Shown here in pieces: positions 2,179 through 34,475 of a DNA stretch of 36,907 nucleotides. Position numbers and translations under genes: made by a program. The notes beneath the pieces were generated by a model. It saw only the letters and a list, made by a program, of their open reading frames with translations, was not told the DNA's origin and searched no databases. Numbering within the stretch: the stretch's first letter is position 1; each line of letters starts with the position of its first letter. Source of the DNA: Candidatus Woesearchaeota archaeon (GTDB lineage Archaea; Nanobdellota; Nanobdellia; Pacearchaeales; GW2011-AR1); assembly GCA_964357655.1 (NCBI GenBank), contig CAYHMF010000001.1:1-36907 (forward strand). The letters run 5' to 3'.

Positions 2179-4185
2179 TTATTTCTTTCCAAGTCTGCTA
2201 ACAAAGGATTTTATGAATTGCTTGTTTTCTTCTTCATCTTGTTTACTTTGAACTTTTTTTATTGTGTAAAATACTATATTTTCTCTTTCGTGTTTTTCTG
2301 CTTTTACACTCGTCATAAGTTTTTCTTTTATTGATTCACTTATGAGGATTTCTTCGTCTGACAAAGTCGCTATTTTTTTCGCACCAGTTATCAGTGTTCC
2401 CATGCTCATGAATTTTAACTCTCTTCCTTCTTGTTCCCCGACGATTGCTCCAGAATTAATTGAAATCCCAAAGTTTATTGGCTGTCTGAATATTTTGTTG
2501 TGGGATTTAATAATTTCAGTTAATTTAATTGCTAAGTCTAATGCAGGACCTTCATTTTTGAGTGTTTTGGTTTCTGAAGGAACTAGCATGAAAAAGATAT
2601 TTTCATTATTTTCATAAACTATTGCTTTGCCTTCTTCAGAGGCATTTTTAATTTTTTGCAATGTTTCTTCAATTCCTTCTTTTTGAGTTTTCACGTCAGT
2701 GAAATTTTTAATTTTTAAACAAACAACGCTTGCGTCTTGTTGCTTTCCTTTAATTGATAGTGAGAGAAATCCTCTGCTTGATGTATCGATTAATCCTTTT
2801 TTTGAATATTCTTTAGGTCTTTGAGAGGACCCTTCACTTTTTCTTATTATATTTCCCAAAAAACTTCTTTTGAAACCTTTTTTTGCAAACATAAAAATCA
2901 TAAATCCTAAAACAGCCACAATAAACACCCATGCCAAAGGTTGTCGTGCCACAGTCACAATTCCTTTTTTTATTTCTTGAACATCAATTGCGTTTCCAGT
3001 TAACATAGCTCTTCCAGATATTTTATTACCGTTTTCGCTTAAAACTTCTATTGTGTACTCGCCATCTGGGGCAGTCAATAAATATTCAGTTGTATCGTCA
3101 ATTCCAAGAGAAGTAGCAAGATATACTGGTGTGTCCCCTATTTTTATCACAACACTTTTATTGTAAGGAACATTTCCCTTGTTAGTTATTTCAAGAGTTT
3201 TGTTTATTAATTTAACTTCTATTTCTTGTTTTTCTTTTATGTTAAAATTCGATTCTGATGTTAGTTGATTTGACAATGCAAAAACTGTCCATTTGTTTGG
3301 AGGTTCGTTGTAAGCAATTGGGTATTCAAGAAATTTATCCGTCGCTATTTCTATTTGTTCATGAATTAAATTTGTTTCGTCTTTTATTGATATAACTGAA
3401 TTTGAAGGCATTTTTTCTCCTGATTGGTCATGCAGAATTGTTTTAACTTTGAGATTTGTTCCTGGTTCTACTTCGGAGGTTTCAAAAATTATTTCCAAAC
3501 TTGTTGGAACTTGAATCACTAAAGCATTATAATTTATGAATCCATTGTTAGAAATTTCTTCCTCGCTTTCTTTTTCATAAACATTTATTGCAATTAAATA
3601 CTGGCCAGCTTTGAGGTTTTTAGGGGCAGATAGGTTTACTTTGAAATAACCTTCATTTACAGTATCCATTAAACTTATGTCTTCGGTAGAGCCGGTAGTT
3701 ACCATTTTTACCTCGACAAAACCCTTCACCAAATCCCCGTTTTCTTTTTTCGCGTTTCCTTCAAAAATTAAATTTTGCCCCGGAGAAATTTCTTCTGCTT
3801 TAGTTATCATGTTTATATTTATCTTATCTGAAATTGTGAAATTGTTCGTTAGAGAAAAAATATCGTCGAGAGATGCCTTTAATTTGCAACTTTCAGATGA
3901 GTTTCCTATACGTTCTTTGTCAAGAATAACTGTTAATTCAAGAGATTTTTCGTTTCCAGTAGCTAATTTAATATCTGATTTGTAAACTTGATTTTCAATT
4001 CCGTCGCATACCAAATCCAAATTGAATGAAGTCTTCACATCTTTTGTGGCAACTATTTTAACTGGAAAGGTTATCACGTCGCCAAGATTGTAAAGAGTTT
4101 CTGGTTGTTGGTTTATTATTATTTCTGCAGATACAGAAGAAACTAGTAGTATTACAAGTAGTGGTAAGATAAATATTCTCCTCAT
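2179..4185 (-). CDS. single-pass membrane protein with a large extracellular beta-rich ectodomain and a cytoplasmic domain weakly resembling a degenerate class III nucleotide-cyclase fold
   Basis: 668 aa. N-terminal signal-like 'ILPLLVILLVSSVSA'. TM segment 'LAWVFIVAVLGFMIFMF' at about aa 415-431. The C-terminal 'VVCLKIKNFTD...FFMLV...ISINSGAIVG...MSMGTLITGAKKIATLS...ILISE' follows the cyclase-homology layout, but the metal-binding Asp positions are replaced. Confidence 0.6.
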   Translation of the reverse strand: MRRIFILPLLVILLVSSVSAEIIINQQPETLYNLGDVITFPVKIVATKDVKTSFNLDLVCDGIENQVYKSDIKLATGNEKSLELTVILDKERIGNSSESCKLKASLDDIFSLTNNFTISDKININMITKAEEISPGQNLIFEGNAKKENGDLVKGFVEVKMVTTGSTEDISLMDTVNEGYFKVNLSAPKNLKAGQYLIAINVYEKESEEEISNNGFINYNALVIQVPTSLEIIFETSEVEPGTNLKVKTILHDQSGEKMPSNSVISIKDETNLIHEQIEIATDKFLEYPIAYNEPPNKWTVFALSNQLTSESNFNIKEKQEIEVKLINKTLEITNKGNVPYNKSVVIKIGDTPVYLATSLGIDDTTEYLLTAPDGEYTIEVLSENGNKISGRAMLTGNAIDVQEIKKGIVTVARQPLAWVFIVAVLGFMIFMFAKKGFKRSFLGNIIRKSEGSSQRPKEYSKKGLIDTSSRGFLSLSIKGKQQDASVVCLKIKNFTDVKTQKEGIEETLQKIKNASEEGKAIVYENNENIFFMLVPSETKTLKNEGPALDLAIKLTEIIKSHNKIFRQPINFGISINSGAIVGEQEGRELKFMSMGTLITGAKKIATLSDEEILISESIKEKLMTSVKAEKHERENIVFYTIKKVQSKQDEEENKQFIKSFVSRLGKK

Positions 4186-26346: not shown

Positions 26347-26369
26347 AAACGCCCCGTCCGAGATTCGAA
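26347..26369 (-). repeat. 23-nt exact copy of the 3' end of tRNA-Glu (T-loop, 3' T-stem, 3' acceptor strand plus 3 flanking nt)
   Basis: aaacgccccgtccgagattcgaa occurs at 26347-26369 and at 26507-26529. A further 12-nt resemblance to the T-stem/variable region lies at 26422-26433. Confidence 0.85.
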
Positions 26370-26509
26370 GCAAATTTCTTCGAAATTTTCATTAATCAAT
26401 TTTTCGCGAAAAAATTAATTAAACTCGGATTATCGCTTCGAGCGAAAAATCTTTTTGAATTTAACGTATTAGAATCTTGAGAATAAAATCCCCTCTTCGA
26501 TGGTATAAA

Positions 26510-26582
26510 CGCCCCGTCCGAGATTCGAACTCGGGTTACATCCTTGAAAGGGATGAGTCCTTGGCCTCTAGACTAACGGGGC
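26510..26582 (-). tRNA. tRNA-Glu (anticodon TTC)
   Basis: Manual cloverleaf: GCCCCGT/ACGGGGC acceptor, GTCT/GGAC D-stem, CATCC-CTTTCAA-GGATG anticodon arm, CCGAG-TTCGAAT-CTCGG T-arm. No encoded CCA. Confidence 0.9.
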
Positions 26583-26630: not shown

Positions 26631-26957
26631 CTATTTCTCAGATTCCTTTATTAATTGCACACCTGTAACAATTCCCCATATCCAAGAAGACACAGGCCCG
26701 AATATTAGAATCGGAACACCTATTAATAATCCAATAATACTCACGATGCCTATTATAAATAAAATACCAGTAAATAATCCCCCAATTAAAAGAACCAGTT
26801 GCCATATCCCTTCTTTCGTCTTGCCACCAATTAAACTTCCCAATCCAGGGAGTATTAGTATGTTAAGAGAAGTTTGAATAATTCCTATCTCTTGCTTTTT
26901 TGAAGGAATTATTCCTTTTTCTTGCTTTTTTGAAGGAATTTTCAAAATGCTCTTCAT
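26631..26957 (-). CDS. small integral membrane protein whose 5' part is R1-derived; probably the downstream part of a frameshifted longer ORF
   Basis: 108 aa with two or three hydrophobic segments ('GIWQLVLLIGGLFTGILFIIGIVSIIGLLIGVPILIFGPV'). The N-terminal 'ILKIPSKKQE.GI' unit is duplicated. Confidence 0.6.
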   Translation of the reverse strand: MKSILKIPSKKQEKGIIPSKKQEIGIIQTSLNILILPGLGSLIGGKTKEGIWQLVLLIGGLFTGILFIIGIVSIIGLLIGVPILIFGPVSSWIWGIVTGVQLIKESEK

Positions 26958-31783: not shown

Positions 31784-32965
31784 ATGTTAATTGGATTGGT
31801 AGGAAAACCTTCGTGTGGAAAGTCAACTTTTTTCAAAGCATCGACGCTGGCAGAGGTAGAAATAGCTTCGTATCCATTTACAACAATTAAACCAAATCAC
31901 GGAGTTGGATATGTCAAAGTCGAATGCATTGACAAGGAATTTAACACTCAGTGTCATCCGAATCACGGATTTTGTATAAATCATCACAGGTTTGTTCCGG
32001 TTGATATGATGGATGTTGCGGGATTAGTTCCAGGAGCGAGCGAGGGAAAGGGTTTGGGAAATCAGTTTCTTGATGATTTGAGAAAGGCAAATGTTTTTAT
32101 TCATATTGTAGATGCTTCTGGAACAACTGGCATCGACGGAAAACCCACTGAAAATCACGACCCTTGTGAAGACGTGAAATTTTTGGAAGAGGAGTTGAAT
32201 AAATGGTATTGCAATATTCTTATAAAGGTTTGGAAAACTTTTGCCCGAAAAGCAGAAATGGAAAAAACTAAATTTTCCGAGGCAGTTGCGAAGCAATTTT
32301 CTGGATTGGGAGTTGTTGAAGGGAATGTTAAAGATGTTATTCGCAAGTTGAATTTACCTGAAAAACCAACTCAATGGAAAGAGGAACAGGTTATGAAATT
32401 TGCTGGAGCACTAAGAGAAATTAGCAAGCCAATGATTATTGCGGCGAATAAATGTGACCATGCCAACGCCCAAAAAAATATTGAGAAGATGCAAAAGAAT
32501 TTTCCAGAGTTGATGATTTATCCATGTTCTGCAGATTCAGAGCTGGCTTTAAGAGAAGCAACCAAGGCAAGATTGATTGATTATATTCCTGGCGACGACA
32601 AATTCGTAATTAAGGGAAAAATTTCCGAGAGGCAGAAAGATGCATTGGAAAAAATTAAGAAAAATGTTTTGGAAGTTTATGGCGGGACTGGAGTTCAAGA
32701 AGTTTTGAATTTGGCTGTTTTCGATTTGTTGAAATACCTTGCTATTTTTCCTGCAGGTGCAAATAAATTAGGAGACAGCAAAGGGCATATTCTACCAGAT
32801 TGTTTCTTGTTACCTCAAGGCTCAACAGCATTGGATTTCGCATTTTTCTTGCACACTGATTTCGGAAATAATTTTATTAAAGCAATTGACGCCAGAACAA
32901 AAAGAGCCCTTGGGAAATCTTACGAATTAAAGCATAGGGACGCTTTAGAAATTGTAACACGTTAA
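31784..32965 (+). CDS. ychF: YchF/OLA1-related Obg-family GTPase with a C-terminal TGS-like domain
   Basis: G1 'GKPSCGKST', 'YPFTTIKPN', G3 'DVAGLVPGA', G4 'NKCD', and C-terminal 'GSTALDFAFFLHTDFGNNFIKAIDA'. Confidence 0.8.
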   Translation: MLIGLVGKPSCGKSTFFKASTLAEVEIASYPFTTIKPNHGVGYVKVECIDKEFNTQCHPNHGFCINHHRFVPVDMMDVAGLVPGASEGKGLGNQFLDDLRKANVFIHIVDASGTTGIDGKPTENHDPCEDVKFLEEELNKWYCNILIKVWKTFARKAEMEKTKFSEAVAKQFSGLGVVEGNVKDVIRKLNLPEKPTQWKEEQVMKFAGALREISKPMIIAANKCDHANAQKNIEKMQKNFPELMIYPCSADSELALREATKARLIDYIPGDDKFVIKGKISERQKDALEKIKKNVLEVYGGTGVQEVLNLAVFDLLKYLAIFPAGANKLGDSKGHILPDCFLLPQGSTALDFAFFLHTDFGNNFIKAIDARTKRALGKSYELKHRDALEIVTR

Positions 32966-33110
32966 ACTTTGTAAACAAAATTTTAGAACGCATTGGAAAC
33001 AATTAAACGTTAAACTTTGTAAACAAAATTTTAGAACGCATTGGAAACAATTAAACGTTAAACTTTGTAAACAAAATTTTAAAGACGCTCTTGAGATTGT
33101 AACTAGATAA
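32936..33110 (+). repeat. tandem array: four ~29-30-nt copies of the ychF-like gene's terminal codons alternating with three identical 19-nt spacers (actttgtaaacaaaatttt)
   Basis: Terminal-codon modules at 32936-32965, 32985-33013, 33033-33061 and 33081-33110. Spacers at 32966-32984, 33014-33032 and 33062-33080. The two central 48-nt units are identical. Confidence 0.9.
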
Positions 33111-33151
33111 GTATAAAAATTGAAATTGTTTAATAAAGAAAAAGAGCTAAG

Positions 33152-33976
33152 ATGACAAAAGTTAAAATTGCAGTTGTTCAGTTTAAGTTAGAATCAACGA
33201 CGGAAAAAAATTTTAAAAAAGCAGAAAAATTTATTCAAAAAGCTTCCTTGAAAAAAGCGAATATAATTATCTTTCCTGAAAATTTTATTTCAACTTCTGG
33301 AAAAAAGAAAGAAATATTCATAGATTCAGATAAAAAATTTCTAAAATTCTTCCAAGGAATGGCAAAGAAATACAAAATAGATGTTGTTCCTGGCTCGGTT
33401 ATTGAAAGAAATTGGTTCGGAAAAAAATATAATGTTTCATATTATATTGATAGCTACGGAAAAGTATTATGTCGGCATAAGAAAGTTCATTTATGGCTTT
33501 CTGAAAAATCTCTCTTAAAACCTGGAAAAGAAACAAAAGTTTTTGACACAAAATATGGAAAAGTGGGGTTGATAATTTGCTGGGATTTAATGTTTTCAGA
33601 AGTTTTTAAAAAAATAATGAAAGAAAATGCGAGCATTATTTTTTGCCCGAGCAATTGGTCGTACCAAGACGCAGGCAAAGGATTAAAGTATGATAAAAAT
33701 TCCGAAATTAAGTTAGTTGATTCGTTATGTGTTGAGAGAGCATTTGGAAATGAGGTTATATTAGTTTTTTGCAATACTGCCGGGGGGTCTTATGATAAAT
33801 CTAAAAAAGTTTATTCTATGGGGCATTCTCAAGTCACTGAACCTTTTAAGGGAGTAGTTAAAAAATTAGATTCTTCCAAGGAGCAAATGTTTATTGTGAA
33901 TGTGAATACCAAAATTCTCGACGATGCTGAGAAATCTTATGAACTCAAAAAGGACTTGAAGATAAAAAAGAAATAA
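33152..33976 (+). CDS. carbon-nitrogen hydrolase (nitrilase superfamily)
   Basis: Catalytic E-K-C context: 'IIIFPE', 'HKKVHLW', 'GLIICWDLMF'. Confidence 0.8.
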   Translation: MTKVKIAVVQFKLESTTEKNFKKAEKFIQKASLKKANIIIFPENFISTSGKKKEIFIDSDKKFLKFFQGMAKKYKIDVVPGSVIERNWFGKKYNVSYYIDSYGKVLCRHKKVHLWLSEKSLLKPGKETKVFDTKYGKVGLIICWDLMFSEVFKKIMKENASIIFCPSNWSYQDAGKGLKYDKNSEIKLVDSLCVERAFGNEVILVFCNTAGGSYDKSKKVYSMGHSQVTEPFKGVVKKLDSSKEQMFIVNVNTKILDDAEKSYELKKDLKIKKK

Positions 33977-33983
33977 AAATTGT

Positions 33984-34475
33984 TCAAACCAAATGCCCAG
34001 GACAAAGAATTTTATAATTAATTTTTTTTAGTTTTTCTAAAGATTTTTGCATTTCTTTTTGATTGCTTTCTGGAAAGTCTGTTCTTCCGATGCATCCATT
34101 ATGAAAAATCACATCCCCTGAAAATAAAACGTCATCATATAGAATGCAAATATCTTTTTGTGTATGCCCTGGAGCTTTTATTATTTTGAATTCTTTTATT
34201 CCTAATTCATTTATGTTAGAATTGTTGTATGTTTTTGCATCCGCGAAAAGTTCGATATTTCCGACGTGGTCCCAATGTTCATGAGTCAGAATAAGAATAT
34301 TAATTTGTTCTGGAGTGAGATGTAATTTTTTCAAATCATTAATTAATTCTTCTTTATTACTTTTTGAACCTGTGTCGATTAAAATATTTTTGTTATTGAT
34401 TTTTATCAAATAAACACAAGAGCCGAATTCTTGGAAATCGAATTGCCAAATGTTCGGGGTTAATTTGGATATCAT
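33984..34475 (-). CDS. MBL-fold metallo-hydrolase
   Basis: 'LTHEHWDHVGN' (HxHxDH) and a later 'APGHT'. Confidence 0.8.
   Translation of the reverse strand: MISKLTPNIWQFDFQEFGSCVYLIKINNKNILIDTGSKSNKEELINDLKKLHLTPEQINILILTHEHWDHVGNIELFADAKTYNNSNINELGIKEFKIIKAPGHTQKDICILYDDVLFSGDVIFHNGCIGRTDFPESNQKEMQKSLEKLKKINYKILCPGHLV

Follow-up and report, generated by a model that had tools for sequence, protein, structure and literature searches.

The elements e14 and phage 21 integrate into the 3′ end of icd in Escherichia coli and supply a replacement gene end. A comparable arrangement lies behind the gene for a YGR210-like/YchF-like Obg-family GTPase in a stretch of 36,907 nt from a Candidatus Woesearchaeota archaeon (GenBank assembly GCA_964357655.1, contig CAYHMF010000001.1, positions 1 to 36,907), the whole of which is called the window here. 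In this array the working end of the gene (module M1) is followed by short spacers (S), a decayed module (M2) with an exact copy (M3), and an intact fossil gene end (M4). As at icd, a working end and a displaced copy stand in direct orientation, the protein is unchanged (M1 encodes the family consensus RDALEIVTR*, the asterisk marking the stop) and the copies differ mostly at synonymous positions. In contrast to icd, the GTPase locus is without an integrase, an element body or an identical core, and its insert of 97-145 nt is made of modules and spacers only, with several modules stacked one behind the other.

Similar stacks have been described at the loci of rhs, contact-dependent inhibition (CDI) and type VI secretion system (T6SS) effectors, whose C-terminal displacement arrays were proposed to arise by homology-facilitated illegitimate recombination (Kirchberger et al. 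2017, PMC5361080); C-terminal displacement is also the subject of Jackson et al. 2009, as cited in that paper. In both cases incoming DNA anchored in the conserved part of a gene would supply the new 3′ end, and a conserved gene body is followed by former 3′ ends stacked in one orientation. The tips of the rhs, CDI and T6SS arrays are distinct toxins that come with immunity genes and are under selection, whereas those of the GTPase gene are about 30 nt long, all encode the same nine residues at the end of the TGS domain, confer nothing visible and have no genes between them. The synonymous divergence of M1 and M4 points to separate histories as working ends.

Homology-facilitated illegitimate recombination, also termed 'homologous recombination at the border', is experimentally established for transformable bacteria (de Vries and Wackernagel 2002; Prudhomme et al. 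2002; Meier and Wackernagel 2003; as cited in PMC5361080). It shares with the present locus a single anchor in homologous sequence, an illegitimate junction close to where the homology stops, the trapping of short foreign DNA and small duplications or deletions, and differs in that the process at the GTPase gene is read from scars alone. Minisatellites that arise by slippage resemble the array in their head-to-tail 48-nt period, perfect central copy and assembly-dependent copy number, but the outer modules here are not drifted copies, and their divergence, synonymous in M4, is limited to the module interiors. We know of no report of homology-facilitated illegitimate recombination in DPANN archaea. 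The array behaves like known gene-end displacement, but it has neither the integrase, core and cargo of an integrative element nor the variable tips and immunity genes of a toxin locus.

The array is most likely a non-functional recombination scar at a place of repeated entry by foreign DNA, namely a stack of displaced gene ends, and as such most likely evidence of gene exchange rather than of new machinery. With moderate confidence, its origin can be put as follows: DNA of a diverged relative would have recombined with the chromosome while anchored in the GTPase gene and been resolved at the stop codon, so that a new end came in and the older one was pushed downstream, after which slippage duplicated one unit.

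Layout of the array

The GTPase gene and the parts of the array are as follows, the modules M1, M2 and M4 and the spacers being read from the sequence.

31784..32965, plus strand: YGR210-like/YchF-like Obg-family GTPase gene, 393 aa (Pfam PF08438, PF01926, PF02824)
32936..32965, plus strand: M1, working gene end RDALEIVTR*, AGGGACGCTTTAGAAATTGTAACACGTTAA
32966..32984, plus strand: S1, 19-nt spacer ACTTTGTAAACAAAATTTT
32985..33013, plus strand: M2, decayed module AGAACGCATTGGAAACAATTAAACGTTAA, 29 nt with a 1-nt deletion
33014..33032, plus strand: S2, spacer identical to S1
33033..33061, plus strand: M3, exact copy of M2, a unit variably present among assemblies (absent in locus L195)
33062..33080, plus strand: S3, spacer identical to S1
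33081..33110, plus strand: M4, intact fossil gene end KDALEIVTR*, AAAGACGCTCTTGAGATTGTAACTAGATAA
32959..33081, plus strand: perfect 48-nt tandem repeat, 2.6 copies (TRF)
33112..33119, plus strand: the next gene's TATA-like box TATAAAAA, 2 nt past the M4 stop, read from the sequence

The final 7 nt of M1 (ACGTTAA) already form part of the perfect 48-nt repeat. In the frame of the GTPase gene M2 reads NALETIKR*, and S holds the weak palindrome TTTGT-AA-ACAAA. M4 adjoins the TATA-like box and stands 41 nt before the ATG of the next gene. Its frame, which is open across the array, is +1 relative to the GTPase gene, so that M4 is beyond the reach of simple read-through; translational use of M4 by read-through or frameshifting was rejected, the fossils of relatives lying in all three frames and being blocked by stops. 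The inserted 145 nt consist of modules and spacers and nothing else, and their deletion restores an intact GTPase frame.

The TGS domain at the C-terminus of the GTPase extends to the final residue (Pfam). The gene is present in one copy in the genome and is essential, and its C-terminus RDALEIVTR is conserved across about 190 orthologues, in which [RK]DALEI[VI]T[RK]* is a near-invariant end. The genome bin to which the window belongs (770 kb, 31% G+C, 86.8% complete) comes from a DPANN archaeon in groundwater, and its relatives carry the labels Pacearchaeota, Woesearchaeota or Nanoarchaeota. When this genome was scanned as a whole with a decapeptide profile, M1 scored 42 and M4 scored 35, and because the next best match reached only 11.5 the likeness of M4 to a gene end exceeds chance. 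Matches to further module copies elsewhere in the genome were at control level.

Divergence of the modules

M1 and M4 differ at 8 nucleotides (22/30 identical), a distance comparable to that between the gene ends of different genera, and their longest identical runs measure 8 nt (ATTGTAAC) and 6 nt (GACGCT). Four codon changes are synonymous (TTA>CTT, GAA>GAG, ACA>ACT and CGT>AGA), while AGG>AAA exchanges arginine for lysine. An initial annotation of this DNA had reported the coordinates, sequences and module-spacer layout, all of which were reproduced, and the same four synonymous changes, to which the AGG>AAA exchange is now added. In 40,000 simulations of duplication and drift, halted at 8 differences, with M1 allowed synonymous changes only and M4 left free, a mean of 4.4-4.5 codons changed non-synonymously, and at most one did so in 0.25-0.33% of runs (P ~0.003). 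By this pattern, M4 is a gene end of the working type and not a drifted duplicate.

The decayed module follows another pattern. Of the 5′ 23 nt of M2, 9 positions are unlike M1, with non-synonymous changes and an indel among them, while the 27-nt block ACGTTAA+S+A shows no differences among its copies (0/27 vs 9/23, Fisher 3e-4). Since the synonymous pattern of M4 and the uneven one of M2 coexist, uniform neutral decay of one duplicated unit is excluded. Because both M1 and M4 would through most of their divergence have served as working ends and the gene is single-copy, they may be taken to come from different lineage histories that were joined by recombination.

Fossil gene ends in related genomes

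About 190 orthologous GTPase loci were gathered, and the 500 nt 3′ of the stop were scanned with the profile at 168 unique loci. Fossil ends were detected in 9-10 of the 168, at 13-115 nt downstream and always on the coding strand, with control scores of at best -3.4 on the reverse strand and 2.6 upstream on either strand. In a separate search of 301 genomes of the order, the pattern LEI[VI]T[RK]* was present in 122; 7 of these have it at least twice on the same strand, at a distance of 44-299 nt, and a reversed control pattern occurred twice in none. Comparable fossil ends follow the GTPase gene in about 6% of related genomes. By one common criterion, such ends were found at 3/157 loci of the GTPase gene vs 0/544 for the other open reading frames (ORFs) of those loci (Fisher 0.011). 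Orthologous gene ends, the comparison of which the initial annotation had put forward as a check, repeat the pattern, and the protein tree places fossil-bearing loci in at least 8 separate lineages.

The fossils of relatives repeat the character of M4. Among 18 pairs of a true end and a fossil, 63/83 differing codons are synonymous, and the remainder are mostly V/I or R/K exchanges, which are natural variation of the family. One locus (L042) holds two additional intact modules, RDALEIITR* and RDALEIVTR*. What the fossils usually retain is LEIVTR* at their 3′ side, the 5′ side being lost, and in L073 and L120 it is the working end that is off-consensus (EIICR* and EIVCR*) while the fossil keeps the consensus EIVTR*. 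In most lineages the spacer has no likeness to the sequence after the fossil, as would be expected for a trapped donor flank. No fossil or array was seen in the nearest relatives of the window (82-83% identity). Stacks of the same type arose in many lineages, sometimes together with gene cargo.

Reproducibility and copy number

Whether the array is real was judged from independent assemblies and Logan contigs. Locus L195, on a contig assembled from a different Hainich groundwater sample, matches the window with 99.95% identity across 4.6 kb and carries the array as M1-S-M2-S-M4, that is, with one M2+S unit less. Logan contigs of runs SRR32696708 and SRR32696712 terminate at '...S+AGAA', and a second contig of SRR32696708 begins at 'TAAACGTTAA+S+M4'. 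A de Bruijn simulation with k=31 gave no unitig break for one M2 and, for two or more M2 units, breaks exactly at both observed contig ends. The order M1/M2/M4 is reproducible and the architecture real, and an independent sample has at least two M2 units. Either their number is polymorphic or one assembly has collapsed it. Because copy number differs among assemblies, the identical M2+S unit is read as a young, unstable product of slippage that was duplicated very recently.

An assembly artefact, by which the array or its copy number would have been produced during metagenome assembly, is accordingly highly improbable: all data are metagenome assemblies, L195 has one M2 unit vs two in the window, and a gene-end duplicate on contig C25 of the genome spans a 10-N scaffold gap and resembles haplotype duplication, but a second sample, assembled independently, gave the identical order M1-S-M2-S-M4, both outer junctions are present in the Logan contigs of other runs, whose breaks fit the prediction for at least two M2 units, and many relatives have analogous arrays in assemblies unrelated to this one.

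Proposed origin of the array

Since strong conservation of the GTPase gene gives way to variable DNA behind it, its stop codon forms the border at which homology between related genomes ends. A diverged relative would contribute DNA that recombines with the chromosome using the conserved gene as its anchor, and the event, either homology-facilitated illegitimate or Campbell-like with short homology, would find an illegitimate resolution no more than a few tens of bases from this border. The incoming piece would provide the working end M1 together with a short donor 3′ flank (S and perhaps an older fossil, M2), while the resident end M4 would remain before the promoter of the next gene as an untranslated fossil. 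Only events that leave both the GTPase frame and the downstream promoter intact would survive, and under this filter the remnant would be a duplication of the last 20-40 nt. The M2+S unit would then have been duplicated by slippage or unequal exchange. This explanation covers the short spacers and fossils, the variable 5′ limit of the fossils, the spacers of unrelated sequence and the occasional cargo.

That M4 rather than M1 is the resident end is suggested by its place 2 nt before the TATA-like box and 41 nt before the ATG, by the frame that removal of 145 nt restores and by two relatives in which the fossil is nearer to the consensus. A haplotype joining ...GAATTAAAGCAT directly to AAAGACGCTCTTGAG would mark M4 as the resident ancestral end. 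The initial annotation had suggested that M4 is the displaced ancestral end; its consensus peptide, its stop and its near-synonymous divergence argue for a former working end, and its status as the resident one is probable rather than observed. Its proposal that about 145 nt were inserted with a replacement end gains from the restored frame and from relatives that repeat the pattern, two of them with cargo.

Several observations weigh against this origin. All three copies of the 27-nt block ACGTTAA+S+A are identical although the module interiors differ by about 40%, so that a single import would not suffice without additional slippage or conversion. M1 and M4 share the rarer GAC codon for aspartate, a hint of common descent within the lineage. 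Sliding-window identity, split trees and segment-wise phylogeny revealed no clear breakpoint within the GTPase gene, the C-terminal third of which is too conserved for one to be resolved. No donor lineage was found; a search by way of the carbon-nitrogen hydrolase gene that follows the array yielded orthologues that never adjoin the GTPase gene or a module. Most fossils of relatives come with very short spacers, and kb-scale cargo is present in one only, so the typical event may be local repair or duplication and not import. The genome of the window furthermore has many short tandem duplications at gene borders.

Alternative explanations

A first alternative is site-specific integration, in which the last GTPase codons would serve as an att site for a recombinase encoded elsewhere, the modules would be hybrids of the attL/attR type and the cargo would have been lost at this locus. 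Hybrid att sites would account for fossils that are often scrambled at the 5′ and intact at the 3′ side, and the off-consensus working ends beside consensus fossils at L073 and L120 fit as well; the gene cassette of genome G171 is flanked by module blocks, and the window holds a 23-nt copy of a tRNA-Glu 3′ end 137 nt from the tRNA, which is a classical att-like scar. Against these stand the failure to detect a tyrosine recombinase (PF00589) in the 86.8% complete genome or in or next to the G171 cassette, a longest identical run of M1 and M4 of 8 nt, 5′ limits of the fossils that range from ~18 to 36 nt among lineages, and cargo in only 1-2 of ~17 cases. The neighbours of the array in the window are a hydrolase and a metallo-beta-lactamase-fold (MBL) gene and include no integrase gene, only spacers and decayed modules lie between M1 and M4, and the module had no match in the viral contigs of IMG/VR. 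Integration in this form is unlikely, and the logic of an integrating element that the initial annotation had applied to the locus was not borne out.

Plain tandem duplication by slippage followed by drift, with all modules derived from one local 48-nt unit made of the gene end and ~18 nt downstream, seems more unlikely again. The constant period with its perfect 2.6-copy core, the unequal copy number among assemblies, the tandem repeats elsewhere in the genome (about 15 with periods of 38-79 nt, a few of them lying across gene ends), the GAC codon common to M1 and M4 and a weak likeness of S (GTAAACAAAATT) to the sequence after M4 (GTATAAAAATT) all favour it. However, a divergence of M4 that is near-synonymous only is improbable under drift (P ~0.003), the divergence is distributed unevenly (0/27 vs 9/23), the synonymous pattern recurs in the 18 pairs from relatives, and most spacers of relatives are unrelated to the sequence after the fossil. 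Slippage, which the initial annotation had offered as its alternative, is retained for the last step, the identical M2+S unit of variable number, and abandoned as the origin of M4. It had named a copy number that varies in read data as a sign of an assembly artefact; among assemblies the M2 units do vary, but the architecture of M1, M2 and M4 was reproduced.

It is distinctly improbable that the last codons of the GTPase gene, and by extension those of other conserved genes of DPANN archaea and the Candidate Phyla Radiation (CPR), form a common landing pad at which cassettes are exchanged, either independently of an integrase or trans-mobilised. Any DNA with a copy of the gene end on both sides would in that case loop out, move between related cells and re-enter, and the short stacks of modules and spacers would be empty sites.

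Still more doubtful is selection of the modules and spacers for a function, whether as context of a promoter and transcription factor B recognition element (BRE), as a terminator or hairpin of the 3′ untranslated region, or as a protein binding site. The M4 stop is 2 nt from the TATA-like box, and several fossils of relatives adjoin such boxes too; S is identical in its three copies, unlike the module interiors; and the spacers of the window and of L006 and L042 are alike, with a palindrome preserved by paired changes (its stem is 5 bp in S vs 7 bp in L006/L042). Hairpins after the stop are slightly in excess among orthologues, stems of at least 6 bp occurring in 13.8% vs 5.8% of shuffles. On the other hand, shuffled sequences fold as well as the RNA of the array does (z = 0.04) and no Rfam match was obtained at E up to 1. 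Fossils at matching positions (L006 vs L042, G171 vs G267) differ at synonymous positions, showing that the nucleotides are not conserved; the downstream genes vary among lineages, and the array is wholly missing in the nearest relatives of the window. A structured RNA was rejected by the same fold and Rfam results.

Other known types of repeat were also set aside. A dispersed mobile hairpin of the repetitive extragenic palindrome (REP) or miniature inverted-repeat transposable element (MITE) kind does not fit, S being unique in the genome and showing no enrichment in 300 related genomes, where its matches were at control level; the genome search for the 19-nt spacer and the 48-nt unit that the initial annotation had suggested returned no other copy in the 770 kb. 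The L006 spacer is likewise single-copy in its own genome. The L120 spacer has GCAAATCCACGCAGTGATTTGC in common with five loci of dispersed hairpin repeats in the genome of the window, and spacers of lineages like L120 may have a mobile-hairpin origin. In a CRISPR-like array (clustered regularly interspaced short palindromic repeats) the spacers would not be identical as they are here. The template and variable repeats of a diversity-generating retroelement were rejected on the sequence itself, no search for a reverse transcriptase being made, since adenines are not the specific site of change between M1 and M4 (G>A, G>A, T>C, A>T, A>G, A>T, C>A, T>A) and the end of a conserved housekeeping gene would be the target.

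Cargo and the variable slot behind the GTPase gene

The features to the right of the array, and the cassette of one relative, are the following.

33152..33976, plus strand: carbon-nitrogen hydrolase gene (Pfam PF00795), an accessory gene that occupies the slot between the GTPase and MBL genes
33984..34475, minus strand: metallo-beta-lactamase-fold (MBL) gene (Pfam), the conserved right-hand neighbour of the slot
5230-8720 of L202 (contig C26 of G171): cassette with a radical SAM/SPASM gene (minus strand), a nucleotidyltransferase gene and a SPASM-domain gene

By its position 33 nt before the ATG, TATAAAAA at 33112..33119 is a probable promoter element of the hydrolase gene. In G171 the order is GTPase-M1-S-M-S-M, a 3.3-kb cassette and M-S-M, and the module blocks are ~85% identical. 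The stop codon of its SPASM gene falls within the right-hand block, among the codons of the fossil 'LKNR'. In another genome, G264, the true end is separated from the fossil by a convergent ORF of 67 aa.

Orthologues of the hydrolase are patchy (~7/251 genomes of the family) and adjoin the GTPase gene in none of them. An MBL homologue, 58% identical, occupies the matching position and orientation in L198 and L199, where the intervening genes differ from those of the window, a PF1765-like gene and OTCase taking the place of the carbon-nitrogen hydrolase. Because the genes before MBL differ among relatives, cargo occurs and the hydrolase is patchy, the 3′ border of the GTPase gene is regarded as a variable slot. 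When L198 (3683-4086) and L199 (2622-2625) are compared, the PF1765-like gene overlaps the GTPase stop (ATGA) in one of these close relatives, and in the other 400 nt with a 42-aa ORF and no visible fossil separate the two genes. This 400-nt stretch is a further insertion at the border of the GTPase gene.

A stack of this kind would offer a readable and datable record of DNA exchange in uncultivated DPANN archaea, the recombination biology of which is, to our knowledge, almost unknown. Each fossil end would mark an entry of foreign DNA beside an essential gene that was not broken by it, and where a conserved gene borders on a variable slot its stop codon would be a preferred point of entry for accessory genes, such as the hydrolase in the window, the radical SAM cassette in one relative and OTCase in others. 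If this proves true widely, a survey of such ends could quantify cross-lineage recombination in reduced genomes. In practical terms, the unstable 48-nt repeats break short-k assemblies exactly at the array and may mislead gene callers and synteny analyses.

Other repeats at gene borders

Across the genome of the window, 11 ORFs have a copy of their last 8 residues and stop within 300 nt downstream, vs none in the reverse-complement control. These cases are mixed: some are near-identical tandem duplications of 49-79 nt and others are direct repeats of 30-50 nt that flank short, G+C-richer inserts, some of them in dispersed hairpin repeats, and there are also one duplicated gene start, one scaffold-gap artefact and one end that differs only synonymously. 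The gene borders of this genome are clearly in flux.

The synonymous case lies outside the window on contig C4 (12613-12770), where an 89-nt G+C-richer insert lies between two copies of a gene end. These copies agree in their first 28 nt, and their last 12 nt have 4 differences, all synonymous or stop-to-stop (AEKKL*, AAAAAGCTTTGA vs AAGAAACTATAA), and pieces of the insert recur on contig C70. On contig C25 (~2800-3040) a gene end and its flank are duplicated, ~80% alike, on either side of 10 N; this looks like two haplotypes joined by scaffolding, hence an assembly artefact. On contig C9 (8199-8366) a 34-nt direct repeat surrounds a 99-nt insert; what it duplicates of a minus-strand gene is the start (ATGATAACTTACAACG...) rather than the end, and the insert resembles an internal gene piece on contig C37.

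Dispersed repeats with units of ~50 nt are found at C36:907-1045, C34:2309-2430, C12:7453-7542, C6:1565-1655, C43:6226-6294, C60:43-77 and C41:6145-6192. The units contain a small hairpin, for example GCAAATC-CACGCAGT-GATTTGC or CCGAAC-AA-GTTCGG, and terminate in ...GCAGTCGCTTCGCAT; one such unit is the spacer between the true and fossil GTPase ends in another genus (L120). A further dispersed repeat, with a period of 78 nt (AAGAAATAGGAATTATTCAAACTTCTCTATAGAGAAATTAGCAAAA...), is present at more than 10 loci, partly within ORFs (C2:29508, C3:20008, C4:19346, C17:14434, C25:3995 and 6719, C26:2317, C32:6325, C55:5121, C69:1257 and C74:69).

Within the window, the exact 23-nt repeat of the tRNA-Glu 3′ end, att-like and without cargo, is located at 26347-26369 and 26507-26529, and a 30-nt tandem repeat of 2.2 copies with 91% matches (TRF) extends over 26876-26940.

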